A stretch of DNA of 64,000 nucleotides, from the NCBI GenBank assembly GCA_041649255.1, contig JBAZNK010000006.1:12225-76224 (forward strand). The letters run 5' to 3'. Shown here piece by piece: positions 6,143-28,259 of the stretch (its first letter is position 1; every line of letters starts with the position of its first letter). The translations under genes and the position numbers were made by a program. This stretch comes from a bacterium. GTDB taxonomy: Bacteria; Hydrothermota; UBA3073; JACQXS01; JAQTXJ01. A model generated the notes under the pieces. That model saw nothing but the letters and a program-made list of their open reading frames with translations. It did no database searches and was not told the origin of the DNA.

Positions 6143-6144
6143 GC

Positions 6145-6414
6145 TTATATTTCTAATGTTTCCTTAATTTTCTCTAAAGCGTTCCCTTTCAGCTTCGTAT
6201 CTGCATTGCAAGAGGAACATTTGTGCAGGGGACAACCTTGCGGATTCTTTATATGGTCTTTTATCCAATCTATGTGGTTACCAATTTTCTGGTCTTCGCA
6301 ATTTTTGCATTGGATTATGACTATTCTGTTTTCTTCGTGTGTCCCTTTTTGAATATCTAATAGGGTTATGTAGTTGATTGACATTCGGTTAAGATATCTT
6401 AACAGTAATTCCAC
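6145..6414 (-). CDS. Small Cys-rich hypothetical protein of 89 aa; possibly a zinc ribbon.
   Basis: CKNCEDQ...GCPLHKCSSCN cysteine cluster. It is tightly packed between the flanking ORFs (2-3 nt gaps). Confidence 0.4.
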   Translation of the reverse strand: MELLLRYLNRMSINYITLLDIQKGTHEENRIVIIQCKNCEDQKIGNHIDWIKDHIKNPQGCPLHKCSSCNADTKLKGNALEKIKETLEI

Positions 6415-6415
6415 T

Positions 6416-7000: not shown

Positions 7001-7110
7001 AAAGTTTTTAATAATACAAAAAGCTCATCAAACAAAATATAGTCTAACTCGTTCATAGCTGAACTTAACTTAACTATCCTTTTTGTCAAGACCCCGTTGT
7101 TACCACTTTT

Positions 7111-7837: not shown

Positions 7838-7851
7838 TTACTGAGAGAAGA

Positions 7852-9915: not shown

Positions 9916-10043
9916 TCTTATCCCCCTAGTTAAGTTTTTTCAACTTCCGATAATATAAGTTATGTATCAACCTTTGCTTATTTTTCGCTTTTTTCATAGC
10001 ATAATAAATTATACATATTTATCATTTTGTTGTTTGGCAAGAG

Positions 10044-10105
10044 AAAAGCATTTGCAAATATCTATATTTATGGACATTTTTCCATATTGGGGTATTTTAG
10101 GGGAT
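10044..10105 (-). promoter_or_regulatory. Conserved upstream element, family 1, copy 1. The first half matches; the second half is degenerate.
   Basis: aaaagcatttgcaaatatctatatttatggacattt matches the copies at 18678, 24321 and 26865. It lies ~130 nt upstream of the start of the minus-strand gene 7852..9915. Confidence 0.5.
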
Positions 10106-10194
10106 AGCGTTTTTGATAAAGGGGCTTAACATTCTCTTTATTTGTTAACGTGTTGCTAGTAAAAAAGTATATTTTTGTGAAAAGTTTGGGCTTG

Positions 10195-11769
10195 TTATTT
10201 TATCAAAATTAGCTTTTGGGTTTCTTTATGAGTGCCTGCAGTAAATTTCATAAAATAAACGCCTGTGGATAAGCCTTTTGCATTTAGAATTAGATTATAA
10301 CTGCCAGCTTCCTTTTCTTCGTTGACAAGAGTTTTAATTGTTCTGCCAGTTGCATCGTAGATTCTTAAAGAGACTTTGCTTTTTGTCGGCAATTGATAAT
10401 TTATAACGGTTGATTGTACAAATGGGTTGCGGGAAATTTGTAATTTAGGATTTAGGATTTGAGATTTTGATTTCTCCTCTATTCCCGGCCCTGTGTATTT
10501 GCAAACCCAGACTTTATTTGGTTTATAATAAATATCATTTGCATAGTTTGAAAACATAATCTCATTTGCGCCATCTCCATTTACATCCCCTGCATTTGCG
10601 ACAGTCCAGCCTATTTGTTGTAAACTATCTGTCCCTATTGCATAAGCTTCTGTTATAGTATCAACGGAAATTCCTCCTAAATATACATAAATTTTGCCTT
10701 TTGCATTATAACAACCAGCAGGATAATGACAACTTCCGATAACTAAAGCTTTTTCTCCAGATGAAAGAACATTTTCTATACCCGCAATGGTATATCCATA
10801 ATAAGTTCCTAAGGGATAAGGGAATGCATCCCCTGCAAAAATTATATCTTTTTTGTTATTCATTGGATTCCCACCCCAATATGCAAGAACTGTATCGTAT
10901 GCAAAAGGAATTCCGATACAAGCATCATCAAATCCATCGCTATTTAAATCAGGTAATAATGCGACATCTTCTCCAAAATCTCCTCCGTTTCCTAACATTT
11001 CAACATCGGGAATAGTATCCATAGAATTGCCACCATAATAAATGTATGCCTTTCCTCTCATACTACCATAATTTAAATCGGATACTAATAAATCTTCATA
11101 CCCATCATTATTTACATCGTATCCACTTGATAAAGACCACCCCAAACTAGCTTCTCCATTTAAAGTGATATGCTGGTTTGTATCACAGGAAGAATTGCCG
11201 AAATATATATCTACTCTTCCTCCTGCCGGGCCTAAACTTGGATTTCCAATTATTATGTCATCATACCCATCATTATTCAAATCTCCCATTTGTGGCGGTA
11301 ATTTCCCTTCATTGCGTCCGAATAGTTTGAAATCACATATTGTATCGGGAGAAACTCCACCTAAGTATACCCAAACTTCTCCTCCCCCTATTGCTATGTC
11401 ATCATACCCATCCCCATTATAATCTCCTATCTCTATATCATGTCCAAAGGACTCTCCGGGATCATATGGGCCTAAGAAAATTATATCCGGGATTGAATCC
11501 ATAGACTGTCCCCCATAATAACCGCATACATAATATTGGATAACAATATTTGTGTCTATGGTACTATACATTCTTCCCCCTACAAAAATATCACTGTATC
11601 CATCTCCATTTATATCTCCGGAAGAAAGTCCACATCCAAAACTACTGCCTACTATAGTGGAATCCAATTCTGTTATTGTCTGCAGCAGTTCCAGATTGTG
11701 CAGTTCCAAAGGATATATGGGGGATAAAAAAACAATATTTCCTAATAAAATACCTATAAAAAATTTCAT
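10195..11769 (-). CDS. Secreted FG-GAP/VCBS-type repeat beta-propeller protein with a T9SS C-terminal sorting domain.
   Basis: Repeats DINGDGYSDIFVGG, DYNGDGYDDIAIGG, DLNNDGYDDIIIGN, DVNNDGYEDLLVSD, DLNSDGFDDACIG, DVNGDGANEIMFSN. CTD ...GVYFMKFTAGTHKETQKLILIK. Confidence 0.8.
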   Translation of the reverse strand: MKFFIGILLGNIVFLSPIYPLELHNLELLQTITELDSTIVGSSFGCGLSSGDINGDGYSDIFVGGRMYSTIDTNIVIQYYVCGYYGGQSMDSIPDIIFLGPYDPGESFGHDIEIGDYNGDGYDDIAIGGGEVWVYLGGVSPDTICDFKLFGRNEGKLPPQMGDLNNDGYDDIIIGNPSLGPAGGRVDIYFGNSSCDTNQHITLNGEASLGWSLSSGYDVNNDGYEDLLVSDLNYGSMRGKAYIYYGGNSMDTIPDVEMLGNGGDFGEDVALLPDLNSDGFDDACIGIPFAYDTVLAYWGGNPMNNKKDIIFAGDAFPYPLGTYYGYTIAGIENVLSSGEKALVIGSCHYPAGCYNAKGKIYVYLGGISVDTITEAYAIGTDSLQQIGWTVANAGDVNGDGANEIMFSNYANDIYYKPNKVWVCKYTGPGIEEKSKSQILNPKLQISRNPFVQSTVINYQLPTKSKVSLRIYDATGRTIKTLVNEEKEAGSYNLILNAKGLSTGVYFMKFTAGTHKETQKLILIK

Positions 11770-11874
11770 ATATTTTGCTCTTATATAATTATATATACTT
11801 TAAAATCTACCTTTTTGCAACTTATTTCTCAAAAAATCCGAAAAATAAACAAATTATTTTTAAAATTAAGAAGC

Positions 11875-11904
11875 CCTCCTCATCGTTGGGGAGGGCTTCA
11901 GTTG
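11875..11904 (-). terminator. Probable rho-independent terminator after the 2207-aa gene.
   Basis: Stem gaagccctcc / ggagggcttc with a 9-nt loop. On the minus strand it is followed by TTAATTTTAAAAATAATTTGTTTATTTTT. Confidence 0.55.
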
Positions 11905-11917
11905 ACTTATTTGCTTC

Positions 11918-14900
11918 CTACTTCATCAAAATCAATTTCTTTGTCTCTTTGTATTCACCAGCATTGAATTTCGCAAAGTAAATACCCGTTGGATAGTTCT
12001 TTGATTCAAGCGTTTCTTTGTAATAGCCGGGCAATCTTTCTCCTTCTACAAGAGTTTTTACGCATCGTCCTGTAAGGTCGTAGAGTTTCAAAGATACTTT
12101 GCTTGTTTTCGGTAGTGAATATTGAATCGTCGTTTTGTTCCTAAATGGATTTGGATAATTCTGATAGAGTTTGAAAACAAGCGGTTTAGAGATAGTTCCT
12201 TGTGGTCCGCCGCTTCCAAGTTCGCCTCTGCAAATCTTTCCATCTCCACCATCTGTAGCATTATCGGGGCCTACCCCATGAGTTACCAAAACATTTCCCG
12301 TAAAAGTCTCTACATTTCTTATAAGCGCAATTCTTCCACCAGCCGAGCCACCACCGTCTGCCTGTGTATTATTTGCTCCGTCATTTCCATTTGCCTCTAT
12401 GTTTCCTTCTCCTTTTAATGAATCACAGCTTATAAAAATTGAGCCACCGCTTCCAGCACCACCTGCATACCCGCTTGAATATTTATATCCAGCTTCTCCA
12501 TTTGCTGAAACTATTCCATCAATCGTTATCACATTTGCTGAAAGTTTTAATCTTCCTCCACCGGAACCTCCCGGGGCTACTGTATAGTTATCCCCAAAGC
12601 CTCCGCCTGAACCAAGAGATGTAGGATTAAGAGAATCTGCTTCACCATAAGCAACTCCACCTGATATTCCGCTTTCTCCGTTTCCACCTGTATTTCCATA
12701 CCCAGCTCCGCCGGCACCCGCTCCATTTACGCCGTTTGTGCCCTTGCCGGTTCCGTTTGATGTTAAGTAACCTTTTTTATCTGCACTTATTACTGCTCCT
12801 GAACTGACAGTTATCTCATTTGCCGTAATAGAAGCATTGCCTAATAGGGAATCTCCGGAATCAAGCTGGAATTTCACATTACTGAAATTCGCTCCATTAA
12901 CAAATGAAAGCCTGTCATGTGAACCTATTATCGTATTAACCGGAGAAACAAGCAATTCCACGCTTCCATTGGATTGAACTACTTTTATTATCCCGCTCTG
13001 TCCATCTTGTGCTCTATCAGGATATATTGATCCTGCTCCAACTCCTCCGTTTGCTAATAACTTTCCGCTAAAAGATGAATTTCTGTAATTAATTCTTAAA
13101 TAACCTGCGCCACCACCGCCACCTTGGGCTGTGCTTCTATATGCGCCATCTCCTCCATTTGTTTCCGCGATTCCGCTTCCAGAAATAGAATCACAGATTA
13201 TATAAATTGACCCTGCTCCACCGCCACCACCGGCATAAGATGAGCCACCTGCTTCTCCGTCTGTTCCATTCGATTCTATTTTTCCTGAAAGTGTTAATGT
13301 GGCTGTTGAGAGTTTAATTCTTCCTCCACCTGCTCCACCCCAAGCCGAATAAGAGCTGCCATTTCCACCACCACAGCCAAGGTAAGACATTGGAGAAAGA
13401 GTATCTGAATAAGCAACTCCACCCGATATTTCCGTTTCTCCTAAACCGCCTTGCCCACAGCATGCTCCACCGCCTGCTCCCGCGCCATTTGTACCATTTG
13501 AGCCTTTTCCCGGTCCGCTGGCTTTTGGATTCCCTTTGCCTGTAGAGCTTAAAGTGCCTAATAGTTGCATTGTTTGAGCTTCTACGTCTATGATACCGGT
13601 AGTAGAGTCAGTGCCATTGAATGCAACACTATTCATCGTAGCACCTGAATTTATCTTAAATAAACCGATATTGTAATGTCTGCCTGAAACGAGTCTTGTG
13701 CTGTCGGTCGTCCAAACCCAGTCAGCTCCGCCATGATTCGTTCCGCCAAGTCCTACACTTAACTGGAAGTGACGCACTCCGCCTGCTCCGGAGTTATAAA
13801 CATAGTTCGGATTAGTACGTAAGTTCTGTGTAGCCCCATTTCCAAGATCAAGCAAATATATGCCGTATCCCGAAGGCACATCGGACGGTAAAATGTTAAG
13901 TGTTATATTTTCGTTTGATTTATCCGTATTGACTTCAAAATTCCATACCATTGTGGAATCCGTAAGGTCAAGTGTTTTCCTGACATCCTGACAGAATTTA
14001 TCTCCCAATGGATGATTCCATTCGGAATGCGGGAAATAAAGATATACATAATTAGAAGGTGGAATGGAATATTTTGGAATATCATATCCTTCATCACAGC
14101 TGTCGGAAGCTTCTCCAATTACGCCTGCATAATTAGAAGTATCATTACCGAAACTTGCCGTGGCTTTGACTTGCACTTTCCAATCAAGAGGTAGAATAGT
14201 TTTTATCGGCATAAAAGTAATAGGACCTGAAACAGTACTTGCTATAGTAGCCGAGTCATTAATTCCCCAGTAGTTATTTTGAGTTAATATATTGTCTCCA
14301 GCTTGATTTAAAAAGTTCCATGTTGCGTTGCTATAGATGCTATTATTTCCCGGAGTATACTCTGCGCTTTGACAATTTATGTTCCCAAAGTTGAACCCTA
14401 TAGCTGAATTAGTGGATACCCCGATGTCATTAGCTATTATTGTATTCTCTCTTCCCATTAGGGAAGAATTTTCTGCTTTTATACCTGTTTCATTGTGATG
14501 TATTGTGTTTCCCCATAATTCTCCATGAGGAGCATTTGAGTACAATATCCCTGCTTCATTACAGTCTTTTATTTCAAAACCACAGATAGAAATATAAGAT
14601 TTTCCATTTACATTAAATCCATAGTCTCGAGAATTGTCACCAGTAATTACTACTCTTTCTCCCGGAACTGCAATATATGCAATAATACCACTATCAGGAT
14701 AACCTGAATTATAAGGTGTTATTGTTTCGTGGTATACGCCTTCTCTGACGGCAACTGCTTCGTCGGCTTTTAATACACTAGCAGCTTTTTGAATAGTTGC
14801 AAAAGGTTGTCCCTCAGTGCCTGGGTTCATATCACTGCCATTTGTACAATCTGCATAATACAACTTTTTATATTTAGAAACAGTTTTTTTAAGACTCCAT

Positions 14901-17900
14901 GGTCCCATTTGTCCTGACCTATGCATTGCACAGACAAAGAAAGTAATGTCCTGATGGAAAGGATTTTTTTCTAAATATTCATACCATGTCCTTTGAATTG
15001 GAGCGAATGATTGAAGATAATAATTTGCAGTTGCTTTTTGTCCCACCATTCTTCCTATAGGACAAACCCAATAGCCACCAAGATAGGGTTCGTAAGCAGA
15101 AGAACTTGCCCCAGTGAATGGTATCGGATCCCATACAAGACGGTAAATTTTTTGATTCGGAGATGTAAGAGTTTGGGATTGCCCTTTAAGGTTTGTTACT
15201 CGAGGAGGAATGGCATTATTTACAGCTAGAGTTGTGTTATAATTGGAAAAATCCGAAGGCATATCGTCACAGAGATCAGAAGGATTATTATCGTCAACCG
15301 CACGAATTCTATAAAAATAAGTCCTTCCAATTTCACCTGTCTTATCTTTATAATATACCGATCCTCCTGTCCCAGAGAGTTCATCAATATATTCAAATGG
15401 GCCATTTTGACTTATCTCTGAACGATAAATCCAATATTTCATGCTTGCTGTAGTTTGCCATGTTAAAACATCTTTACTTTCTTCCCCATGCTCACCTAAT
15501 GCAACTAAAAACATCGGTACGTTTGGGGCAGGAACAGATACCCAGGGAAGATTATAGGGAGTAGCTTTAAACGCACGCGTTTCAAGTACTGGCCTTCTTA
15601 ATAGTGATACTGAGTTGTCTTTCCAAACGATTTTAATTTTATAGTAGTAAGGTGTATCCCAAATTACCTTATCGTCCAAATAGGTATAATAATTATAGTT
15701 AGGTTCAGCATTTGATGGAGTGATATTATTTGTTAAACAATGGTAAGGGCCTTCTTCGCATACGCTGCGCCACACTTCATAATGGTCTATAATATCACTT
15801 GCACCACTACTTATATCCAACCAAGATTCTTTTTCAGTAATCCAACTTATTCTGACTTTTTGATCGTCACTGAAAACAAAGACCTTTCCTAAGGAAGGAG
15901 CGTAGTATCTACCAAGAAGTGTTCCTGTCTCGTAAGATCCGGCAGGAACCGGGTGTCTCCCTCCAGCCCAGGACATCCAACCTATATTTCCTTTACAATA
16001 TATGCTATAAAGGTCATCATTCTTCAGAAAATATTCCCGAGTTGGACCTTCAGCATTATAAATAACATCGGATGTTCCGACATAAAATCGTCTTCCCTCT
16101 ATCCCCAGATTTTCATGCCAAACATTCATAATCCATGTCGGGAACATTGCTCTTCCTGAAATAATTTCATCTATATTTTCTTTAGCCCATGATGGAGAAC
16201 TGTATTTTCCTACGCTTCCCGTAGATATTCCTATCCAAGAAGTAGCAGGGTCATTTTCTTTCCCTGAAATTCCGAAGTTTGCATGCCTTACATCATACCA
16301 TTCTACAGGAGTTCCGTTCCCAAAATCCCAGTCAGCGACACTCCATCCATCCGGATGAGAAGGCTCTTCATTCTCAAAAAGTGTCCATGCATTTGTTGCA
16401 TCCATTCTATTCCAAGTCGCTCCTCCATCTGTTGTTCGGGCAATGCCGGTATTTTTCGTTGTCATTGTCTCATCTCTTCCTTGATTGTCCATAGTTACCC
16501 AAACATACTGATAATTAGCTTTGTCAACCCATATGCTTCTGACACAGTCGGAAAGGGTTTTTATATCCCCATTTATTGCATAAGGGACAGGTTGTTGTAC
16601 TGCTGCCCACGTAGCTCCTCCTAAATTACTTCCGTTGTTTGTTTTTAAAACATACCCTTCAGAAGCCCCTATATATCCATTATTTACATCTGCGAAATCT
16701 ACACAGAAAAATGTAAGATTGTATGGAATCGATGAAGACACAAGGGATGTTGAGTTTATACAATCCCATGAGGAGCCACCATTCAAACTTCGCAATATAA
16801 TTCCTCTAGGTTGGGAAGAAATAGCTCCATACGCTTCATTCACACTTACTTGTTTATTTACTCCGACGATAAATATGGTGTTATTTGGAGAATTAGGTAT
16901 TTCACACACTCCTTGGAAATCCCAATCAGCTGGATTGATACCAGCAGAACTTAAAGAGGATGATTTGTCAGACCATGAAAAATCCGTATTCCTTCCAAGC
17001 ACCAATCCGTTATCTCCTACTGCCCAGTGTCCATTAACAGACCTTACAATTTGGTTCGTATTAATAGGTGCCTGTTGGTCAAACCAACCATATCTGGATA
17101 AAGTATCAAATGAAACTTGCGTAAGCCAGGTATTGTGATATTCCCATGATTTAGGCTCAAGTTTTGGTACACCAAGGTCATTATTAATATTGGATATGTG
17201 GTAACTATAGCAGGAGAATTGATCTCTACAAGATGCCCAACTTGACGAAGTTAGTATATCAACTCCTGTATTGTTAGAAATTGCCACTATCTCTGCATGT
17301 CCATCATTATTTATATCAGCTACAGCAGGATGTTCCCATCCAGTTCGAGATGTGAAAGTATTATCAATGATATCCATCCCCCCAGTGCCTCCCCTTATAA
17401 CATCATAGGCATATAAAGCATTAGTCCCTTCCCATATTATCTCCTTTATGCCATCTTTATCAATATCGCAAATAACAGGAGCAGGGGCCGAACCAGTCGT
17501 TCCATCAATTACATTTACTTGACGATATATAGTTGGTTGAACAGAAGGTCCGTTATCCCGAAGAACAAAGAGCATATCTTCCATATTATCAAAACTTGTA
17601 TTTGAAAATACTACAATTTCAGGTTTACTTTGATCATCTGCTTCATTTAAGTCGGCAATAGCCACCATAGACATGGTTTCCGCAGAATTTGTGCCTGAGG
17701 GGGTATGTATAAACCTCCATCTTTCTCGTAAGCTTGATAGTCCTGTATTCCATTCAAGACAATATAATACATTTTCATCTCCACCATGTACACCATCTGA
17801 CACTAAAATTTCAGGTTTTAAGTCACCATCAACGTCAGCTATTGCTACAGCTCCCATCATAGGAGTCGGTAAAACTGCCATCCACGTATGTTTCTGACCT

Positions 17901-18541: not shown

Positions 18542-18677
18542 CTCCTTTGCCCTAAAAAGAGCAATTTACTTTTCAAAAAAGTTCTAATTAATAAAATCAT
18601 TCTATAAATCAATGATTAAATAAAATATTATATTAAGAATTTGAGTTTATTCCCCCTATCTGTCAATAAAATTTCAT

Positions 18678-18752
18678 GTGCAAATATCTATATTTATGGA
18701 CATTTATCTATATTTATTTGCAAATATCTATGTGGGGAATTTTTCGAAGCGT
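18678..18752 (-). promoter_or_regulatory. Conserved upstream element, family 1, copy 2 (full length).
   Basis: gtgcaaatatctatatttatggacatttatctatatttatttgcaaatatctatgtggggaatttttcgaagcg. It lies ~135 nt upstream of the start of the giant gene (18541). Confidence 0.55.
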
Positions 18753-18804
18753 TAGCGGACAGTGGTAATTAAAAAAAATAGGGGGTGTTGATTTTTACAA
18801 TCCC

Positions 18805-18856
18805 TGTCTAAGTTCTGGGATAAAAGTTAGGTTGTTGTAAATTAGCAACTGAACAG
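18805..18856. repeat. Conserved intergenic element, family 2, copy C.
   Basis: ctgtctaagttctggg...aaagttaggttgttgtaaattagcaactgaaca matches 1266-1340 and 28096-28192. Confidence 0.45.
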
Positions 18857-18932
18857 ATATTATGCTATTCGCAGTTTGAATAATGTGTGTTTGTGTAAAC
18901 TTGCTATAATAAAAATCCTTTTTCTATATGTG

Positions 18933-20645
18933 TTATTTCATTAGCACTAATTTTTTCGTTTCTGTATAATTATCTGCTTGGAATTTCAGGAAATAAACTC
19001 CTTTGGCAACTTCATCCTCTCTTATATTAACTGTGTGGTAGCCTTTTTCTTGACTGCCGGAGTAAAAAGTTTTAACCAACCTGCCTGATATATTGTAAAG
19101 ACTTAAAGCTACATTTAATTTTTCAGGTAAGCCATACTTAATCACAACATCTTCCATAGAAGGGTTTGGGGTTATTGAAATTTGAGTTGTGAATTTTGAA
19201 TTGTGAGTTGTTTCTTCTATTTCTACAAGGCGTAAAGATGCCCTATTTTTGTAATTTACATTTCCGCTACTATCCACTAACCAGACAAACAAAGACTCGT
19301 TTGCCGCCAGAGTAATTGTATCCGGCGGGTAATGGAATGCGCTGGTGGTATCAAAGTCAGAAGTCGGTGCAGAACCTACCTTGGCGGAACCGATCTTATA
19401 GTAATATTCTGAAATACCACTTGGGTCAGTAGGGTTAATCCAGTTGATTTCAAAAGTAGAATCACTGCCTAATTTATTAGCAGTGAGGTTGATTGGTGCC
19501 GGAGGGGCAATCGTATCGCTGAACGGAGCAGAAAGGAATGGACGATAAAAAGCTATACCATAAAAATTAGAATCATAATAATCATAAATTTTTGTATCAA
19601 TTATACTTGAACTTGTAGTGTTCCAGTAATTATATTTTGCATCAATATTCAGAGTGTCATTGTTATATACAGCGTAGCCAGTAGAAGAAATATTGTTTGT
19701 ACGAACGAAAAGAATCCCCCCGTTATTGTAGATTGCAGAAGTAGTAATATCTATTATAGCGTTATATTTAATTGTGGCTTTTTTGCCATAATTATATACA
19801 CTCCCCCCGCCATAATAAGCCGAGTTATTAGATAGTGTGTTGTTAATTATTGTAGCTGTACCAAAATTACAGACACCGCCACCACCACCATAACCAGAAG
19901 AAGCGGAGTTGTTAGATATTGTGTTATTTGTTATTGTAGCTGTCCCAGAATTAAAGATACCCCCACCATAATAATTAGCTAAGTTGTTAGATATTGTGTT
20001 GTTGTTTATTATTGCCGAGTCATAATTAAAGATACCGCCACCATAACAAGTAGTTGAGTTATTAGATATTATGTTGTTCGTTATTGTAGCTTTGCCATAA
20101 TTACAGACGCCACTACCAGCTCCATAGCCATAAGAAGCTGAGTTGTTAGATATTGTGTTGTTAGTTATTGTAGCTCTGCCAGAATAATTATAGATTCCCC
20201 CACCATAAGAAGCCGAATTATTAGATATTGTATTATATCCAATGTAGAGCGAATTACTACCTTCATTGTATATAGCTGAACTACCGGCATACTCAATTCT
20301 GCAGTATTTCAAACTACATCTTGAAGTTGATTGAAACCATAGTCTCTGCCATCGCTGTGTGGTGTTTTGTGCGGATATTATAATCGAATCACTTGGTGTA
20401 CCGATTGCATTCAAAACTCCTTTTACCAGTATGCACTTTCCACTATTAAGTTTTACTTCAACTCCTGGCTCAATAGTAAGTGTTGCGGAAGTATCTACTA
20501 GAACATTTTCCGTAATAATATACGGACTACCTGCCTTATTCCATACTGTATTTGTGCTGATAGCCATGTCTGCATTTGTGCTTGCGATTACAGGCAAAGA
20601 TATAATAAATTGGGTTATTACAGTTATGCTAAAAATTTTTTTCAT
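18933..20645 (-). CDS. Secreted parallel beta-helix (PbH1) repeat protein with an FN3-like domain and a T9SS C-terminal sorting domain.
   Basis: Start chosen at MKKIFSIT, preceded by ggaggt. Beta-helix coils: NNTISNNSASYGGGIYNY, TITNNTISNNSASYGYGAGSGVCNY, TITNNIISNNSTTCYGGGIFNY and others. CTD ITPNPSMEDVVIKY...GVYFLKFQADNYTETKKLVLMK. Confidence 0.8.
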   Translation of the reverse strand: MKKIFSITVITQFIISLPVIASTNADMAISTNTVWNKAGSPYIITENVLVDTSATLTIEPGVEVKLNSGKCILVKGVLNAIGTPSDSIIISAQNTTQRWQRLWFQSTSRCSLKYCRIEYAGSSAIYNEGSNSLYIGYNTISNNSASYGGGIYNYSGRATITNNTISNNSASYGYGAGSGVCNYGKATITNNIISNNSTTCYGGGIFNYDSAIINNNTISNNLANYYGGGIFNSGTATITNNTISNNSASSGYGGGGGVCNFGTATIINNTLSNNSAYYGGGSVYNYGKKATIKYNAIIDITTSAIYNNGGILFVRTNNISSTGYAVYNNDTLNIDAKYNYWNTTSSSIIDTKIYDYYDSNFYGIAFYRPFLSAPFSDTIAPPAPINLTANKLGSDSTFEINWINPTDPSGISEYYYKIGSAKVGSAPTSDFDTTSAFHYPPDTITLAANESLFVWLVDSSGNVNYKNRASLRLVEIEETTHNSKFTTQISITPNPSMEDVVIKYGLPEKLNVALSLYNISGRLVKTFYSGSQEKGYHTVNIREDEVAKGVYFLKFQADNYTETKKLVLMK

Positions 20646-20920
20646 CTTACCTCCTATCTTGCAAATACGAAGCAAGTTGATACGAATATCACATACCGTA
20701 TCTCTACAATTATAATAAATTCAGATTATATATATTAGTAATTTTTATTTATAATATATTTTTAACAAAAATGAAGAGATTTTATTCATATTAAAATATC
20801 GATGAGAAATGTCAAGACATCTTTATGCTTAAAATTAAATTTAATTTGTATATTTAGATAAACAAGAATAAAAGGATTTTTATTCTGTTCTTTTTTCGCC
20901 ACAATTCTTTTAAGAATTAT

Positions 20921-20951
20921 TATGTAGGGGCGGATTTTCCGCCCCTACATA
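20921..20951 (-). terminator. Probable intrinsic terminator hairpin directly after the stop of gene 20958..23612.
   Basis: Perfect 13-bp stem tatgtaggggcgg / ccgcccctacata with loop atttt. The downstream U-tract on the minus strand is only moderate (ATAATTCTT). Confidence 0.5.
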
Positions 20952-20957
20952 ATTCGC

Positions 20958-23612
20958 TTAATCTAAACTAATCTGTTTGATTTTTTCCTTCTTATTATGT
21001 TTCAGTTGCTCTTGCTGAATCTTGTAATCTTTTCCTAGTGTCTCTGAATAACTATAAGCTCTCGGATAAAGTAGTTCGCCCTTTTCGCAAGTCTTGTCTT
21101 TCCCCTTATACTCTTCTACTGGTTTCCGTAATTCTTTTATTACTGGGTCATCTCTATCCGCAAGAACAGTATAGGAAATTTCTTTGTTAGCCTCGCCGTA
21201 AACAGTAAATTTTGTATTACCGGATTGCCATTCATATCCTACCTGGAAAGGCTTACCGATTGGTGTTAAAGTTACTATTGCTTCATTTTCTTTTGTAAGC
21301 GCTGCAAAATAATTTGGCATTTCTACTGTTGCTTCACCGTTAGCATTTAATTTTACTTTCCCCTTATATAAACAAAGATTTTCGGGTGATTCAACAGAAT
21401 TGTACCGCAAAGTCTTATTCATTGGGTCAAGAGGATGGTCAATAAGCAATGAATTATTTCCTGCAGCCGAAATTCCTGTGATTCCTACGTTTCCCCCAAA
21501 ATATCCGGCAAAATTGCTACTATTGCTCGAAGAACCTTTAAAATTTCCTCCAGTGCTAGAGTATACCCCGTATTTTATTGTCCCGTCTCCAGTCGCTAGA
21601 AAATACCCACCATATTTTCTATAACTTCCGTTGCCAGCAGCCCATCCTAATACTCCATATCTATCATCGTAACTACCTGAACCATTCGCGTAAAAATATC
21701 CTCCGTAAACATCTCCTTCATTCGAATAAGAGGAAATAGCATCTCCATGAACGCCCATCATTTCCGAACAGGAACCTTCTGTATACCCCCATACACCTTT
21801 TTTATTCCCTGTCCCTGAGCCTTTTCCTTCAAAATAACCACCATATGAAACACCTGTACTTGTCTGGTTGGAACTACCATAAACTCCATATGAAGCACCT
21901 GTGCTTGAATGGCTGACACTGCCATAAACGCCATATCCTGAACTGCCTGTGCTTGGACTTAAGGTGCTATACAAACCATATTGGGTTCCACTCCCCCCTG
22001 TAGTTGTATATATTCCATATTTATCACCTGAACCTGCACCTTCTGCAGAAAAATAACCTCCGGCGGCGTAGCCTGTCCCTGAATGAGAACCATAACCGTA
22101 AACTCCCCTTACAGATCCTGAACCGGAACCACCTGTATGAGTAGCCTCACCTTCACTTCCTATTATGCTGGCACTTGAAGTTGAAGTTGCCTTACCCCAT
22201 GAGCCCCTTCTAGTTCCTGTTCCTGAGCCATTTGCCTCAAAATATCCTCCTGTCTCATCCCCTGAACCTGCATTAGTGGCGCCACCATAAACTCCATATG
22301 CCGGATTGCTTGAACCTGCAGGTGCAGTTGCAATACTTCTAACACCTACTTTAGCCCCTGTTCCTGAGCCTTTCCCCTCAAAATAACCTCCGTATGTATT
22401 TCCGTTACCTGTATTACTGGCATTACCATAAATTGCAAATGACGGGCCCGAGCCTGCGTGTTGAGCAGAGCCATAAACTCCGTATGCATCATTGCTTGAA
22501 CCTGCGGGTGCGGTAGCTCCGCTATACAAACCATATTTATATCCTGTCCCTGAGCCTTTTCCTTCAAAATAACCACCATAAGCTTTACCTGTGCTTGTAT
22601 GGTCAGTGCTTCCATAAACCGCGAATCCATCATAGCTGTAGAAACCGTTTGCTTCACAGTATACACCATATCTTTTTCCGCCTTCTCCGCTTCCCCATCC
22701 GGCAAAATATCCTCCTATTGCATCACCTGTACTCGTTTGATTTGCACTGCCCGTCATTCCATATGCAGTGCCTGAACCCAGATGCATAGCATAACCATAC
22801 GCTCCATTGGCACTATTACTCGACCCTGAAGGACCTACTCCCTTACTATATAAACCAAATTTATTGCCTGTGCCTGAGCCTCCAGCCTCAAGATACCCTC
22901 CGTATGTATTGCCTGTACCTGTATTATTATTGTATGCTCCATCATATTCACAATATATATCGCTCGTAGTGCTTACAGTCAATGTTTTAGCTAACCCTAT
23001 ACCGCCACTAGTTGCCTCCCAACTTTGTCCTAAATGATTATGGGCAGCTTCGTCCGTACAAAAAGCCTTATAATCATTCTTGCTTTTGCCATCAAGATAA
23101 ATGACGCTTCTTGCAAAGTCAGCAGTATCGGAATGTGTTGCTTTTTCTGCTTTTATTGCATAACCCACGCTGGCTAGTTTCTTGCGCGGGGTAAGAATAT
23201 CGTCGCCTACCTGTGTTTCAAGCCATAATGATGCACCCGTAAAAATATCAGTAGGAATAGGCTTGACGCTTCCAAGCACTGCATTGAACAGCCCGTTATC
23301 TACCTGGATATTAGTTTGTGTTTCACTCCACAATTCCTTTCCTCCCGTTGACTCACTATATAACCTGAAAATCATTCCCATTGTCCCTGTAATACCTGCT
23401 CCTGTAGTATCTTTTGCAGCAGCTATCCATCCCTGGTAATTAAGCTCGTGTAAGTTTGTAAGTGTAGAATTCGTATTTCTTTTTGCCTCTTCTTCTACAC
23501 GAATAGGAGCGGTATTTGTTGCAGCGCGGATAGGACTCGCATTTCTCTGAGCTGCCTGCAATCCACCAAATAATGGAATACACATCGCAATGGTACTCAA
23601 TATTTTTCTCAT
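20958..23612 (-). CDS. Secreted Gly/Tyr/Ser-rich tandem-repeat protein of 884 aa with a distinct C-terminal domain that is not a T9SS CTD.
   Basis: Signal peptide MRKILSTIAMCIPLFGGLQAAQ. About 8 or more repeats of ~55-60 aa: TYGGYFEGKGSGTGxKxGxxSxATAPAGSSNxAYGVYGSAxHAGSG. C-terminus LLIDHPLDPMNKTLRYNSVESPENLCLYKGKVKLNANGEATVEMPNYFAALTKENEAIVTLTPIG. From memory, this resembles the conserved C-terminal domain of Bacteroidetes proteins annotated as tail fiber domain-containing. Confidence 0.6.
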   Translation of the reverse strand: MRKILSTIAMCIPLFGGLQAAQRNASPIRAATNTAPIRVEEEAKRNTNSTLTNLHELNYQGWIAAAKDTTGAGITGTMGMIFRLYSESTGGKELWSETQTNIQVDNGLFNAVLGSVKPIPTDIFTGASLWLETQVGDDILTPRKKLASVGYAIKAEKATHSDTADFARSVIYLDGKSKNDYKAFCTDEAAHNHLGQSWEATSGGIGLAKTLTVSTTSDIYCEYDGAYNNNTGTGNTYGGYLEAGGSGTGNKFGLYSKGVGPSGSSNSANGAYGYAMHLGSGTAYGMTGSANQTSTGDAIGGYFAGWGSGEGGKRYGVYCEANGFYSYDGFAVYGSTDHTSTGKAYGGYFEGKGSGTGYKYGLYSGATAPAGSSNDAYGVYGSAQHAGSGPSFAIYGNASNTGNGNTYGGYFEGKGSGTGAKVGVRSIATAPAGSSNPAYGVYGGATNAGSGDETGGYFEANGSGTGTRRGSWGKATSTSSASIIGSEGEATHTGGSGSGSVRGVYGYGSHSGTGYAAGGYFSAEGAGSGDKYGIYTTTGGSGTQYGLYSTLSPSTGSSGYGVYGSVSHSSTGASYGVYGSSNQTSTGVSYGGYFEGKGSGTGNKKGVWGYTEGSCSEMMGVHGDAISSYSNEGDVYGGYFYANGSGSYDDRYGVLGWAAGNGSYRKYGGYFLATGDGTIKYGVYSSTGGNFKGSSSNSSNFAGYFGGNVGITGISAAGNNSLLIDHPLDPMNKTLRYNSVESPENLCLYKGKVKLNANGEATVEMPNYFAALTKENEAIVTLTPIGKPFQVGYEWQSGNTKFTVYGEANKEISYTVLADRDDPVIKELRKPVEEYKGKDKTCEKGELLYPRAYSYSETLGKDYKIQQEQLKHNKKEKIKQISLD

Positions 23613-23677
23613 TTTCTCCCTCCTTAGTTAGACTTTGCCACACAGTGGCATTAGACTAACTTATCAGTGTTCCTGAC

Positions 23678-24205
23678 TTACTTCATTAATATCATTTTTT
23701 TCGTTGCTCTGAATTCAGAAGCAGACATACGTACAAAATAAATTCCCTGCGCTACTTTTTCTCCCTGCTTGTTAGTCCCGTCCCATAACATATTATACAT
23801 TCCCGGTATTTGTTCCCCGGAAACCAGTGTTTGCACAACACTGCCTGCAAGATTGTAAACCTTTATGCTGACATTACTTGTTTTCGGAATCCCGTATCTA
23901 ATCGTCACACTGCTATTTGTAATCGGATTTGGCCACGGATGAGCCATACTGAATACCTTCGGAATAAGCGGGTTATCCGATACGCCCACCTTTGGACGCG
24001 TTAGACAGGTATAAAACCCCGCCTGCTCAATACGGTTAGCTGCCCGGGACTGCCCGATAACGGATTGGCCTGCCGCATCTTTCATAGAGTAGTTAGCCGA
24101 ACTTGACTTTCCACCCGTAACTGAGAATGCGGATTTCACAAGCACATATTGGGCTCCAAAAACCTGAGTAGCCCCAAAAAGCACTGCGAGAGCGAAACAC
24201 TTCAT
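23678..24205 (-). CDS. Small secreted protein of 175 aa, essentially a signal peptide plus a T9SS C-terminal sorting domain.
   Basis: MKCFALAVLFGATQVFGA. CTD HPWPNPITNSSVTIRYGIPKTSNVSIKVYNLAGSVVQTL...GIYFVRMSASEFRATKKMILMK. Confidence 0.7.
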   Translation of the reverse strand: MKCFALAVLFGATQVFGAQYVLVKSAFSVTGGKSSSANYSMKDAAGQSVIGQSRAANRIEQAGFYTCLTRPKVGVSDNPLIPKVFSMAHPWPNPITNSSVTIRYGIPKTSNVSIKVYNLAGSVVQTLVSGEQIPGMYNMLWDGTNKQGEKVAQGIYFVRMSASEFRATKKMILMK

Positions 24206-24320
24206 CTTTACCTCCTTTTCTCCTTGCTGTTACTCATAAAAATAAGTCTGTAAAACAAACTTTCTTTCACCTCCTTTTATTATATTGAAAAATAACTTTT
24301 TCTTGCTTTATTGCAAGGGA

Positions 24321-24400
24321 AAAGGCTTTGCAAATATCTATATTTATGGACATTTATCTATATTTATTTGCAAATATCTATGTGGGAAATTTTTCGAATA
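24321..24400 (-). promoter_or_regulatory. Conserved upstream element, family 1, copy 3.
   Basis: aaaggctttgcaaatatctatatttatggacatttatctatatttatttgcaaatatctatgtgggaaatttttcgaata. It lies ~115 nt upstream of the start of 23678..24205. Confidence 0.55.
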
Positions 24401-24653
24401 TGAATTTCTGTATTTAAAATGTTGTTGTATTGTAAGAATTTATAAAAAAACAAATCAAAATTTGTGGGAAAACGTTCTCATTTCTTGTTTAAGAGTCTAT
24501 GAAATTTAATGATAATGGAGATATGACCAAAGCATTTTTTTGAAAAGAGGTTTTTAGAGTTGTTGATAATCTCAGTAGTTATACAGGAAAATCTCTAAAA
24601 AGAGATTGTTTTTTGAATGATTAAGCGATAATTTTTTCCATTTTTCCTGAGGA

Positions 24654-26693
24654 TTATTTTGTTTTTAACCGCTGTAAATATTCTAGATTTTTCCTTGATG
24701 CTTCACAAGTTGAGTCTATTGTTAAAGCTTTATTGTACTCATATATGGCTGAATCAATTGCCCCTTTAGCTCTATAGGCATTTCCAAGAGTATTATATGC
24801 TTCTGCCAGATCAGGCTTTAGTTTTATTGCCTCCTTAGATTCGTTTATTGCTTTATCAAACAATCCTTTTCTTTCATAAACATCTCCAAGATTGTTGTGT
24901 ATCTCCGGTGAATCGGGATTTAGTATTAAAGCTTTTTTGTATTCCTGAATTGCTTCGTCAAACAATCCTTTTTGTGCATAAATATTTCCAAGATTGTTAT
25001 GTATTTCAGGAAAATTGGGGTTTAGTATTAACTCTTTTTTGTATTCTTGAATTGCTTCTTCAAATAATCCTTTTTTTGTATAAATATTCCCAAAATTATT
25101 GTGTATACCAGGCGTATTAGGATTTAGCATTAAAGTTTTTTTGTACTTTTGGATTGCTTCATCTAATAATCCTTTTCTTTCATAAACATCTCCAAGATTG
25201 TTGTGTATATCCGGTGAATCGGGATTTAGTATTAAAGCTTTTTTGTATTCTTGGATTGCTTCATCCAACAATCCTTTTTGTGCATAAATATTTCCAAGAT
25301 TATTATATGTTTCAGGGCAAAAAGAATTATATTTCAATATATTCTGAAATAAAGTAATTTGGTTTTTCCAAATATTGTTTTGCCGTATAGTAAGTCCGGC
25401 ATACATAAGAATTACCGCAGCGATAAAGAACTTTATAATGTTTTTGAACCCTGTTGTAAAAGGCAACCTAAGAGTTTTATCAATGCCTGTTGCCAGAATC
25501 ATAAAGAACCCTATGGATGGAAGATATATCCAATGCTCAAGCATTCCTCTTGGTAGAGGTACTATAAGATGAGAGGTAGGGATAAAGAACAACAAAAACC
25601 ATAATGCACCAAAGAAAACAATTCTATTATATTTGTATGCCATAATTACTCCTATTCCTATAATTATAAATACTAAAACTGCAGGATCAAATATAGAAGT
25701 TGTTATAGTTAAAATGCGGTCCATGTATAACCCAAATGGAAGAAAAAGTAATTTCAAATATAGAACAATACTTTTACAGGTAGTAAGCAGTCTTAAGTAA
25801 AAGTTGATTTTACCAGAAGGCCAATTACCAAAGGTTAAAACATAAATCCTCAACAATATATACAGTAAAGTTCCTAAGAAAAAAGGGGCATATAAAAACA
25901 AAAAAGAGTAATTATTTTTTATTTTTTCTCTTAAAGTTAAAACATTTATGTTTAACCCTAATGAGTAATCATACAATACTAGTATAAATGGAAGCATTAC
26001 TGCTGTCTCTTTGGATAACAGGGCAAATATGAAAGAAAAAATTGCACCAGTATAGTAGTAATACTTTTTTTGATTACGCAAGTTAAAACCTGTTTCTATT
26101 GATGAAGTTTGGCGATATTTAATAAACAATATAAGCGTTAATAATATAAAACTGCTTACCATTAAGTCTGTCCTGCCTGAAATATAGGCTACCGCTTCCG
26201 TATGTAGGGGATGCACGACAAAAAGCAAACCTGTAATTAACGAAACTCTTGGGGTGCGGGAGATTAAATTTACAAAGAAATACACAAGTACTGCAGTCAG
26301 TAAATGCCATAGTAAATTACTAAAATGATAACCTGTTGGATTAAGTCGCCACAAATAATAATCAAGCATATTAGATATAGACTGAAAAGGACGATAGTAG
26401 TAATAATGATTAGTGTTTTTATTGTTTCTGTGAGAAGGATCGTCTTTCATACAAAAGATATCTGTAGTGAAGATTTTAGGAATATATTTCCAATTTTTAA
26501 TATAAGGGTTTTTTTCTATAATAGGAATATCATCATAAACGAATTCATTTCTGAAAGAATTGACATATACGATTATACCAAGGATAATTATTGCAAGGAT
26601 GTGGATAAAACGTTTCCCTCTTAAAAGTCCTTTTGATTTTTGTAGTAAGTAACTTATACCTGTTTGCCTATCGTACAAGTTTTGTCTTTTCAT
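24654..26693 (-). CDS. PMT/TMTC-like polytopic membrane glycosyltransferase (GT39-like) with a C-terminal TPR repeat array.
   Basis: N-terminal ~450 aa with more than 10 TM segments and a YDDIPIIEKNPY loop motif. C-terminal 6-7 TPR units (AxQEYKKALILNPDSPxIHNNLGxVYxRKGLxDEA) are encoded by near-identical 102-bp DNA repeats at 24848-25360. Confidence 0.75.
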   Translation of the reverse strand: MKRQNLYDRQTGISYLLQKSKGLLRGKRFIHILAIIILGIIVYVNSFRNEFVYDDIPIIEKNPYIKNWKYIPKIFTTDIFCMKDDPSHRNNKNTNHYYYYRPFQSISNMLDYYLWRLNPTGYHFSNLLWHLLTAVLVYFFVNLISRTPRVSLITGLLFVVHPLHTEAVAYISGRTDLMVSSFILLTLILFIKYRQTSSIETGFNLRNQKKYYYYTGAIFSFIFALLSKETAVMLPFILVLYDYSLGLNINVLTLREKIKNNYSFLFLYAPFFLGTLLYILLRIYVLTFGNWPSGKINFYLRLLTTCKSIVLYLKLLFLPFGLYMDRILTITTSIFDPAVLVFIIIGIGVIMAYKYNRIVFFGALWFLLFFIPTSHLIVPLPRGMLEHWIYLPSIGFFMILATGIDKTLRLPFTTGFKNIIKFFIAAVILMYAGLTIRQNNIWKNQITLFQNILKYNSFCPETYNNLGNIYAQKGLLDEAIQEYKKALILNPDSPDIHNNLGDVYERKGLLDEAIQKYKKTLMLNPNTPGIHNNFGNIYTKKGLFEEAIQEYKKELILNPNFPEIHNNLGNIYAQKGLFDEAIQEYKKALILNPDSPEIHNNLGDVYERKGLFDKAINESKEAIKLKPDLAEAYNTLGNAYRAKGAIDSAIYEYNKALTIDSTCEASRKNLEYLQRLKTK
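24848..25360 (-). repeat. Tandem ~102-bp near-identical coding repeats (TPR units) inside 24654..26693.
   Basis: For example atctccaagattgttgtgtat(c/a)tccggtgaatcgggatttagtattaaagcttttttgtattc occurs at ~24883 and ~25189. Confidence 0.8.
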
Positions 26694-26864
26694 TCGATGA
26701 TAATAGTTTATGTATATAAAAAATGTAAAAAACTTCGGATTTAATATTGTTACAAAAAAAGGAGTAACAAAAACATATTATTAATAATTAATGTATTTAC
26801 TCCGCATAATTTTACTAAATAGTAAAAAATAATATTACATTCGGCTTTCTATTCTTGTCAAAAT

Positions 26865-26945
26865 AAAAGCATTTGCAAATATCTATATTTATGGACATTT
26901 ATCTATTTTTATTTGCAAATATCTATGTGGGGAATTCTTGAGAAT
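26865..26945 (-). promoter_or_regulatory. Conserved upstream element, family 1, copy 4. A similarity tail extends to ~26972 and overlaps the 3' end of the response-regulator gene.
   Basis: aaaagcatttgcaaatatctatatttatggacatttatctatttttatttgcaaatatctatgtggggaattcttg. It lies ~170 nt upstream of the start of the TPR/PMT gene (26693). Confidence 0.55.
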
Positions 26946-27726
26946 GGGAATTTCTATATTTAAGTGGCGAAGTTCCCATTTTTGTTTTGAAAACCCGATT
27001 GAAATTGTGGAAGTCAAATCCTACGCTATGAGCTATTTGAGATGTATAATTTGTTGTTTCTAAAAGCAGTCTCTTTGCATTTGTTGTTCTAATGTCATTT
27101 ATAAAATCAGGTAAGCTAACTTTTGTTGTCGTGTTCCATAAAAAAGAAAAACGTTTAGGATTTAGAGTTACCGAAGAAGCAATCTCTTTTAAACCTAAAT
27201 CCGGATTTGCATAATTCTTTTTTATATATTCAACTGCTTTCTGAACCTTGAAGGGTAAATTTTGGGGAAGCGCAATCTCCTGTGTATTTGATTCCCCTGT
27301 ATTCTTTGTATTCAACGAAGTTTTATTTTGTTCTTCAATTAGCGCATGAATTTTTGTAAGTAGTTCTTCTATGTTGAACGGTTTTTCAAAATAATATGAT
27401 GCCCCGTTGTTTAAGGCATGGAGAATATTCTCTTTGGTAGAGTGCCCTGTCATCATTACTATTTTTATATCAGGATGTATCTTTTTAAAAACAGGAATCA
27501 ACGCTGTCCCTTCAATGTCCGGCAGTTTAATATCAAGCAAAGCAACGTTGAATTTTTTCCACTCAAGTTTTTTTATTGCTTCTTTCCCTGTCAGCACATA
27601 ACTTACTTCATACCGTTCTTTTTCAAAGAGCATTTTCAGCGTTTTACAAAATTCCGGCTCGTCATCTACCACAAGAACACTTCGATTATGCTCCATTTTC
27701 TTAAGAAACTCCTGTCTTGCATTCAT
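26923..27726 (-). CDS. Response regulator with a receiver domain and an AraC-type HTH output domain.
   Basis: REC: VLVVDDEPEFCKTLKMLF...ALLDIKLPDIEGTALIPVFKK...IVMMTGHSTKE...GASYYFEKPFNIEEL. C-terminal AraC HTH: KVSLPDFINDIRTTNAKRLLLETTNYTSQIAHSVGFDFHNFNRVFKTKMGTSPLKYR. Confidence 0.85.
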   Translation of the reverse strand: MNARQEFLKKMEHNRSVLVVDDEPEFCKTLKMLFEKERYEVSYVLTGKEAIKKLEWKKFNVALLDIKLPDIEGTALIPVFKKIHPDIKIVMMTGHSTKENILHALNNGASYYFEKPFNIEELLTKIHALIEEQNKTSLNTKNTGESNTQEIALPQNLPFKVQKAVEYIKKNYANPDLGLKEIASSVTLNPKRFSFLWNTTTKVSLPDFINDIRTTNAKRLLLETTNYTSQIAHSVGFDFHNFNRVFKTKMGTSPLKYRNSHSQEFPT

Positions 27727-27912
27727 TATCCTCCGGTAATTCTTTTATTTTTTTCCTTTATTCTATGTTTTATTGTTTCCCTCCAAACCTCCTATCAACT
27801 TTACAAACATAGCAATATTTGTGACAACTGAAAACAAACTTGCCAAAACACATTATAAATAAAGGAATTTTATCAATAGCAACAATTATGAATATCACTA
27901 GATTTGTGTAAA

Positions 27913-28003
27913 CCTTGTTGACATGTTTTTTATGGAAGCCTATTAAATAATGACTTGTGAACAAAAGTCAACTTTGTTGACATGCGTCAATTTTGTTGAC
28001 TTG
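27913..28003. promoter_or_regulatory. Cluster of GTTGAC-type sites, including two near-palindromes, in the 5' region of the response-regulator gene.
   Basis: ccttgttgacatg (27913-27925); gtcaactttgttgacatg (27967-27984: GTCAAC-TTT-GTTGAC); gtcaattttgttgacttg (27986-28003). Each also contains a TTGACA-like -35 hexamer. Confidence 0.4.
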
Positions 28004-28095
28004 TTTTGTATGTTTTGGTTTTTGGAATCCAAAGTCGGAGTATTGGCAGTCAGTAACAATTTTAAAAAATAGGAGAGAGACAATTTTACAGTCTC

Positions 28096-28192
28096 TATCT
28101 AAGTTTCGAGGCAGAAGTCAGGTTGTTGTAAACTAGGGAATGAACACACAAAGATCCATGAGTACGGTCTGGGAAAATGTTAAAAGTGCTGT
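28096..28192. repeat. Conserved intergenic element, family 2, copy B.
   Basis: ctatctaagtttcgagg...aagtcaggttgttgtaaactagggaatgaacacacaaagatccatgagtacggtctgggaaaatgttaaaagtgctg. About 80% matches 1266-1340 and partly matches 18805-18856. Confidence 0.5.
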
Positions 28193-28226
28193 GTTAACAC
28201 AACCTCAAAATGTCTCCGTTGAAAAA

Positions 28227-28259
28227 GGGGTTACTTTTTCCAATCCTTGCTGAGCGCTT
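28227..28259. repeat. 33-nt exact repeat (copy 1, non-coding), identical to 38166-38198.
   Basis: aaaaaggggttactttttccaatccttgctga, with similar flanks (ctccgttg / ctcgttaa). Confidence 0.8.

Follow-up and report, generated by a model that had tools for sequence, protein, structure and literature searches.

Four copies of a short intergenic element lie in a 64,000-nt stretch of contig JBAZNK010000006.1 (assembly GCA_041649255.1, Hydrothermota), which was analyzed as a whole and is called the window. We read each copy as an AraC-type direct-repeat operator joined to a sigma-70-type promoter. The four modules would head four transcription units and would be read by a response regulator with a receiver and an AraC-type DNA-binding domain (REC-AraC), which is encoded at 26923-27726 and belongs to the group of regulators called clade A below. 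Judging from sequence comparisons, we give this reading a probability of roughly 60%. The element is a real, lineage-restricted module, and it is most likely the adjacent REC-AraC regulator that reads it. An earlier note on this DNA had proposed a shared promoter or operator linked to this regulator. This proposal stands in that the copies are intergenic and co-oriented with the genes behind them, the junction of regulator and element is kept in four other loci, and a sister motif exists. We infer the remainder: that the regulator of the window binds the units, that it activates instead of repressing, and where transcription starts.

The repeat was detected by three methods. A scan for the 16-mer TTGCAAATATCTATRT with up to two mismatches gave seven matches in the window, all on the plus strand and all within the four sites. 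In shuffled sequences the mean was 0.31 matches, and seven were reached in none of 100 shuffles. A repeat search grouped the same sites as one family (D12) at 10035-10118 (61%, partial), 18661-18744, 24311-24394 (86%) and 26856-26939 (90%). With the copy-4 region as the query, blastn aligned copy 3 over 99 nt at 90% identity, copy 2 over 84 nt at 90% and copy 1 over 55 nt at 89%. These results confirm the four repeated elements that the earlier note had described, and an nhmmer profile of the element found no additional or weaker copy elsewhere in the 64-kb window.

Every copy is intergenic, lying 3' of one gene's stop codon and 116-172 nt 5' of the next start codon, which agrees with the 115-170 nt reported before. 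Measured from the edge first assigned to each copy to the downstream start codon in the table of open reading frames (ORFs), the gaps are 129, 137, 116 and 172 nt for copies 1-4. The neighboring genes are all on the minus strand and each copy is co-oriented with its downstream gene. Since about 89% of the window is coding, four intergenic, co-oriented copies out of four represent a non-random placement. Distances of 8.6, 5.7 and 2.5 kb, with genes in between, separate the copies, so the view that they are not CRISPR repeats holds.

Read in the orientation of the genes (minus strand), a full copy has the structure CAC-ATAGATATTTGCAAATAAAT-ATAGATAAATGTCCATAAAT-ATAGATATTTGCAAAT-GCTTTTATT-TTGACA. 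It consists of three direct units of 20 bp with the core ATAGATAWWTG, which occurs 10 times in the window, only within the copies and only on the minus strand. Tandem Repeats Finder reports a period of 20 with 2.8-3.0 copies at 18671-18731, 24327-24381 and 26871-26926. Between unit 3 and a -35-like TTGMMA hexamer lie 12 nt with a run of T. The hexamer is TTGACA in copies 2 and 4, TTGCAA in copy 3 and TTGCCA in copy 1.

All four copies are on the minus strand. In copy 4 (26843-26943), the putative parental copy, the unit cores are at 26916-26926, 26896-26906 and 26876-26886, the -35-like TTGACA is at 26856-26861 and a possible -10 hexamer, TAATAT, is at 26832-26837. Copy 3 (24300-24418) has unit cores at 24371-24381, 24351-24361 and 24331-24341 and its TTGCAA at 24311-24316, while those of copy 2 (18648-18749) are at 18721-18731, 18701-18711 and 18681-18691 with TTGACA at 18661-18666. 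Copy 1 (10031-10088) lacks unit 1. Its unit 2 is degenerate (ATGGAAAAATG, 10075-10085) and is followed by an intact core at 10055-10065 and TTGCCA at 10035-10040. It had been called a half copy; it is indeed partial, but it still holds two units, one of them degenerate. Likewise, the direct repeat of two 16-mers spaced about 40 bp apart corresponds to units 1 and 3 of what is really an array of three 20-bp units. The paired repeats four helical turns apart that had been suggested are therefore replaced by a 20-bp period, or about two turns of the helix, like that of other AraC-type operators. An AraC-type activator acting on direct repeats about two helical turns apart is a standard principle.

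The 267-aa regulator (26923-27726, minus strand) matches the Pfam families Response_reg (2e-26), HTH_18 (6e-12) and HTH_AraC (3e-6). With an N-terminal receiver and a C-terminal AraC domain of two helix-turn-helix (HTH) motifs, it is a REC-AraC protein of the YesN type. The acidic pocket (VVDDEP) and the LLD aspartate of the receiver can be read in its sequence. The gene had been described as directly abutting copy 4. The adjacency is correct, but the two do more than abut, since the TAG stop codon (26923-26925) falls inside unit 1 of copy 4 (26916-26926). Upstream of the same gene, at 27908-28001 on the minus strand, the inverted-repeat motif TGTCAACAAnnTTGAC occurs three times in 95 nt (mean of 0.5 in shuffles), about 180-275 nt 5' of the start codon. 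This triplet resembles a distinct operator for the regulator gene itself.

The family of these regulators is very small: it has 12 full-length homologs among 5.8 billion clusters, all from metagenome-assembled genomes (MAGs). For taxonomic placement, a hydroxylamine-reductase search gave candidate division WOR-3 as the best named match but nothing reliable. An exact 23-mer scan of a genome collection gave one true match, locus L001 in MAG STD1_36, where a two-unit form lies 5' of ParB-like genes and a gene for a T9SS (type IX secretion system) cargo protein. A degenerate two-unit scan of a metagenome collection gave one true homolog, L004; two other matches of that scan, L002 and L003, lack extended similarity and were judged to be chance matches. 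L005 was reached through the regulator protein rather than by a pattern scan. The regulator of L004 is 89% identical to that of the window and also has its stop codon in unit 1, followed by a 1213-aa gene with the T9SS sorting domain Por_Secre_tail. This gene was considered as an ortholog of a 1206-aa gene in the window and rejected, as the match is limited to the C-terminal sorting domain.

Nine instances of the element were aligned: the four copies of the window and those of L001, L004, L005, L008 and L011. L010 and L012 are the L004 and L011 loci in other assemblies, and each locus was counted once. The invariant columns are AT.GATATTTG, then TT and TG at an almost fixed distance. The hexamer starts 12 nt past the proximal unit throughout, apart from a single 1-nt gap in L008 (11 nt). 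The conserved TG belongs to TTGACA, TTGCAA, TTGCCA, TTGAGA or CTGCTA, depending on the instance. AraC/XylS-type operators have at least two direct half-sites, each about 15-20 bp long and about 21 bp apart, centre to centre; copies 2-4, L004, L005 and L008 all have three units with an exact 20-bp period.

The regulators next to these repeats fall into two clades. Clade A contains the window gene, P0002 (89% identical to it; L004/L010), P0003 (73%; L005), P0012 (55%; L011) and an HTH-only paralog in L008. In all five clade-A genes, a unit of this motif (motif A) contains or directly follows the stop codon, and the units are followed by a T run and a TTG-type hexamer although the downstream genes differ. 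In L008, three tandem ATGGATATTTGCAAA units with a 20-bp period precede a gene for a 175-aa protein that is 95% identical to its counterpart in the window. Clade B consists of P0008 (L006) and P0011 (L013), whose HTH regions share 78% identity. Both are followed by a different direct repeat, motif B, in which ATTTTACTAK occurs twice with a 20-bp period and precedes TTTTT.TTGCMA; the distance from the unit start to TTGCMA (TTGCAA or TTGCCA) is 19 nt. Motif B is found at four promoters, before cargo genes and genes of secreted enzymes: those of two cargo genes in L006 (11104-11150 and 16921-16967) and, in L013 (~1995-2040 and 7117-7163), those of a CBM9 protein and a C1 peptidase. In L006, the block shared by the motif-B sites reaches about 90 nt further upstream. 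The recognition-helix segment of the second HTH reads NFNRVFK in clade A versus YFCK(I/V)FK in clade B. Motif and regulator thus vary together, motif A accompanying 5/5 clade-A genes and motif B 2/2 clade-B genes in this small sample. Two regulator groups, each with its own repeat in one architecture, are the strongest available argument that the regulators read the repeats.

The units could instead be bound by a factor other than the REC-AraC regulator, which would then be a bystander of a genuine promoter/operator module. That factor might be the HTH-only AraC paralog at 5720-6142, a different regulator, or RNA polymerase itself through an AT-rich element resembling an UP element. The units are AT-rich, and the HTH-only paralogs (5720-6142 in the window and 5683-6075 in L008) are of the same family, one of them lying directly before an element. 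We consider this explanation unlikely, since a unit sits at the stop codon in every clade-A gene and the motif changes when the group of regulators does. With a generic UP element, one would expect neither an 11-nt core that stays invariant in paralogs nor its absence from the other promoters of the window.

Several observations weigh against an operator read by the REC-AraC regulator. No cognate histidine kinase adjoins the regulator in the window. The single unit of L011 has no co-oriented downstream gene, and the adjacency of regulator and element could in part be inherited gene order. The closest orthologs share 75-85% identity over the whole element compared to 72-85% at third codon positions. 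As the element is no better conserved than these positions, the evidence for selection rests on the deeper paralogs. At the -10 position, 16-19 nt away from the -35-like box, the hexamers are weak and vary between copies, and L004 and L005 differ by an indel of 5-6 nt between the -35-like box and the best -10 candidate. A consensus promoter scan flags copy 4 alone (TTGACA-18-TAATAT). Promoter-like matches in the window numbered 83 compared to 67.3 (standard deviation 7.3) in shuffles, about two standard deviations above, and a single match therefore carries little weight.

Other promoter types were compared by eye. Neither the sigma-54 promoter (-24/-12, with GG and GC 10 nt apart) nor the Bacteroidetes -33/-7 promoter (TTTG ... 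TAnnTTTG) fit at the required spacing. Canonical TTGACA-17-TATATA promoter sequences and GGAGG ribosome-binding sites are found in this lineage, and both types were rejected because of these features together with the spacing misfit.

The copies had been presented as separate sites before unrelated genes, but copies 2 and 3 retain remnants of either the 3' end of the regulator or its upstream flank. Before copy 3, at 24383-24418, there is a 12-codon relic of an AraC C-terminus (FKYRNSYSKNFP); in L008, an HTH-only AraC gene remains intact before the ortholog of the following 175-aa gene. About 20 nt from the 3' end of the regulator's coding sequence recur in copy 2 as well as in copies 3 and 4. 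The upstream flank of copy 2 (18744-18855, minus strand) is 71% identical to 28035-28146, a segment (repeat family D19) between the 1206-aa cargo gene and the regulator gene. This flank is a scar of a cargo-regulator-element module that lost its regulator. The relics therefore point to segmental duplication of such a module followed by loss of the regulator. Copies 2-4 are also nearly identical to each other, while the L008 element is arranged differently in spite of the 95%-identical gene behind it, which suggests recent homogenisation within the genome of the window.

Given this history, the copies might be mere leftovers of segmental duplication and gene conversion in a rapidly evolving island of cargo genes, with an ordinary promoter at most. 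The relics at copies 2 and 3, the homogenisation implied by L008 and the limited conservation between the closest orthologs would all be expected. We find this improbable. The unit core and its spacing to the TTG-type hexamer persist in paralogous loci whose proteins are 55-57% identical, a level at which neutral DNA would be saturated, and just a module of about 55-100 nt is kept per site while the surroundings are all different. Moreover, the independent motif-B system shows the same architecture.

Other short conserved segments and folds occur between genes of the window. Segments of families D19 and D20 lie 3' of cargo-gene stop codons at 1264-1299, 18822-18857 and 28113-28148, and a further pair matches between 28206-28253 and 38157-38205. 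A 147-aa ORF at 38109-38552 that overlaps one of these segments is probably spurious. A candidate terminator, a hairpin followed by a U run, lies 5' of the regulator gene at 28040-28100, in the region (28030-28160) that is homologous to the copy-2 flank. Terminator folds 5' of the copies are weakly supported.

Several copies of about 90% identity in one 17-kb stretch, homogenised in appearance and flanking cassette-like blocks of genes as direct copies, could also result from a selfish intergenic repeat. This might be a miniature inverted-repeat transposable element (MITE), a repetitive extragenic palindrome (REP) or a site-specific recombination site that shuffles cargo-gene cassettes. We regard such an origin as very improbable. 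The alignments show no terminal inverted repeats or target-site duplications at the copy ends, and the sole hairpin is a trivial one from the palindrome TATTTGCAAATA, which occurs twice. Instead of the orientation-indifferent placement of MITE or REP sequences, all copies in the window have one orientation relative to the downstream gene. In agreement with the earlier statement that no transposase is linked to the element, no transposase or integrase family was found among the Pfam-screened ORFs of the window, a screen that excluded several small ORFs. The element was reached in only three public stretches, L001 and L004 by exact-pattern scans and L005 through the protein.

A structured RNA such as a 5' leader, a small RNA or a terminator was considered as well. 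Folding z-scores in the copy-3 region go down to -3.6 and -4.2. Those of the other copies range from -1.9 to +0.15, and the stem comes wholly from the palindromic TATTTGCAAATA in units 1 and 3. Relatives keep the direct-repeat half (ATAGATATTTG) and not the pairing half, the units of L004 and L005 reading TTTGTCC. Rfam at its gathering thresholds gave no matches in the whole window. A structured RNA is therefore the explanation to which we give hardly any credence.

Under the operator-promoter reading, an array of 20-bp units (three in the full copies and two in copy 1) would lie 12 nt 5' of a sigma-70-type -35 hexamer, and array and hexamer together would constitute a promoter that depends on an activator and drives a transcription unit. 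The phosphorylated regulator would occupy the units head to tail, with one two-HTH domain per ~20 bp, and recruit RNA polymerase. If TTGMMA is the -35 box, the units would be centred near -55, -75 and -95. The parental module would be the one at the regulator's own 3' end, with the stop codon inside its distal unit. The remaining copies would have arisen when the regulator-plus-operator module was duplicated and the regulator gene was then lost, and gene conversion would have kept them alike.

From the regulator gene down to 5.7 kb, the window is tiled by four consecutive gene strings, each headed by an element and all on the minus strand. Copy 4 heads a transcription unit with the gene for a 679-aa protein of tetratricopeptide repeats (TPR) at 24654-26693. 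The string behind copy 3 (18933-24205) contains the 175-aa FlgD_ig/Por_Secre_tail gene, an 884-aa repeat protein after a gap of 65 nt and, after a gap of 282 nt, possibly a 580-aa beta-helix cargo gene; this second gap holds a promoter-like site of its own. Copy 2 precedes a 2207-aa FG-GAP/Por_Secre_tail cargo gene and, 148 nt further on, a 524-aa FG-GAP cargo gene (10195-18541). The string behind copy 1 (5720-9915) comprises a 687-aa gene, a 173-aa Endonuclease_NS gene, genes of 194 and 89 aa, and the 140-aa HTH-only AraC paralog at 5720-6142.

Pfam bears out most of the annotations given before, namely the receiver and HTH_18 domains of the regulator, Por_Secre_tail on the 2207-aa and 175-aa proteins and the TPR-rich 679-aa protein. 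The label "PIN-like" for the 687-aa ORF could not be reproduced, as this protein has no significant Pfam family. Por_Secre_tail is present in 10 genes of the window. Two lie directly 3' of an element, two may belong to element-headed operons and six have no element. With six out of 10 under no copy, the element is not a general mark of T9SS cargo genes, contrary to what had been supposed. The idea of a regulon of surface and secreted genes survives in part: cargo proteins are among the targets, but two target strings are not obviously made up of surface genes. This applies to copy 1, whose 687-aa gene without a Pfam family is followed by the nuclease and HTH-only AraC genes.

GC content falls to 28% across the 687-aa gene (7852-10000), which precedes these nuclease and AraC genes. 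The block could have been acquired horizontally, as an accessory or defence-like region that took up a two-unit element. In-frame tandem repeats at the DNA level occur in several genes of the window. Within the TPR gene, a 102-bp repeat is present 4.5 times at 24847-25301. The 580-aa beta-helix protein has 75/84-bp repeats at 19804-20236, and the 884-aa protein has 45-140-bp repeats at 21676-22943. A 710-aa cargo gene carries NHL/propeller repeats of ~126 bp at 2137-3760.

Features in the neighborhood of the REC-AraC paralogs were also recorded. A gene for a hydrophobic peptide of ~40 aa (consensus ~MRxAIGEIISxLxMFxIPxLMILGAVFFIFSGKKTxFEID) lies directly 5' of several of them, at 8928-9050 and ~9874-9996 in L005, 5539-5661 and 9045-9167 in L008, 9877-9999 in L011 and 8060-8155 in L004. 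The L008 copy at 9045-9167 precedes single-domain receiver genes, and the L004 copy stops early at 31 aa. The peptide gene is absent 5' of the window regulator. These regulators, otherwise orphans, may have the peptide as a partner in the membrane. Giant proteins of 1650-1700 aa with Ser/Thr kinase and TPR domains, and also GAF in L011, are encoded next to REC-AraC paralogs (L008 1-2847 and L011 3657-8609), and tandem single-domain receiver genes adjoin the paralogs of both loci. These giant proteins and receivers may provide the sensory input of the REC-AraC paralogs. The 3' flanks of P0006 (L008 10785-10920 and 11104-11164) and P0012 (L011 10900-11700) hold other repeat arrays, including TTTTGGATTGAACRG about four times, a 25-bp unit 2.4 times and long purine-rich arrays interrupted by a run of N.

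The proposed module has much in common with AraC/XylS operators. In these, the proximal half-site, araI2 or the proximal site at Pm, overlaps the -35 box. In the window, 12 nt separate the end of the proximal unit from the -35-like box, there are three units rather than two, and the distal unit overlaps the regulator's own stop codon. As with AraC/XylS operators, each paralogous regulator has its own repeat sequence and the regulator gene adjoins its targets. The regulator here is a REC-AraC protein of the classical kind rather than a ligand-binding AraC or a hybrid kinase, and its binding is predicted. We are aware of few defined operators for REC-AraC regulators. For Bacteroides AraC-type hybrid two-component systems, the operators have been predicted to be direct repeats ~21 bp apart (PMC3878776). 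Like these, araI1-I2 and the XylS sites at Pm, the element has tandem direct half-sites with a period of ~20-21 bp just 5' of the putative target promoter.

A parallel in gene order is XydS/XydR of Ruminiclostridium cellulolyticum, where XydR, a REC-AraC protein, activates the gene cluster directly 3' of its own gene and is not autoregulated (PMC3572039). It has a second, distant target, and its targets encode secreted or surface-displayed proteins (PMC3572039). As in that system, a gene for a regulator with a receiver and an AraC-type HTH domain would here be immediately followed by a target promoter, and secreted or surface proteins would be among the targets (PMC3572039). XydR adjoins a histidine kinase, unlike the regulator here, which has no kinase next to it (PMC3572039). 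The binding regions of XydR are 240-600 bp 5' of start codons, and no precise repeat operator was defined (PMC3572039). Its phylum and secretion route (the cellulosome) are unrelated to the system described here. Another two-component regulator tied to genes related to type IX secretion is PorY-PorX-SigP of Porphyromonas gingivalis (PMC4800418). PorXY-SigP controls genes of the secretion machinery via an extracytoplasmic function (ECF) sigma factor (PMC4800418), whereas here particular cargo genes and other genes would be controlled, apparently via the AraC domain. No relationship of PorX to the regulator of the window turned up, in an analysis that did not compare the two directly. The element also resembles REP sequences and the bacterial interspersed mosaic elements (BIMEs) built from them, MITEs and plasmid iterons in being short, intergenic and present in highly similar copies, and iterons are tandem direct repeats of 17-22 bp. 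It differs in the lack of inverted termini or a stable hairpin, its strict orientation, the lack of a replication-initiator gene and its link to one regulator family. To our knowledge, which on this point is an impression, there is no known regulator specific to T9SS cargo genes outside Bacteroidota.

The result is a solid yet fairly ordinary regulon prediction, whose mildly novel aspects are an operator unit within the regulator's stop codon and a visible route of cassette duplication. It offers a testable regulon in an uncultured, T9SS-bearing bacterium known from MAGs, with an 11-nt operator core, a candidate regulator and four target transcription units. The motif-B pair in related genomes provides a second, orthogonal pair of regulator and operator and thus a built-in specificity control. 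The scars beside two copies show growth of the regulon by copying of the regulator-operator module. More tentatively, and with somewhat less than an even chance of being right, we propose that regulator and operator are inherited as one cassette, given that the stop-codon region of the regulator gene incorporates the distal unit. The REC-AraC/operator family, with at least two distinct motifs and with the 40-aa membrane peptide gene before most of the related regulators, would have diversified and gained new targets through duplication followed by deletion of the regulator, leaving operator-promoter "seeds" before cargo and accessory genes. If this is true, the cassette would represent a concrete, traceable mechanism of regulon growth and a source of orthogonal regulator-operator pairs.

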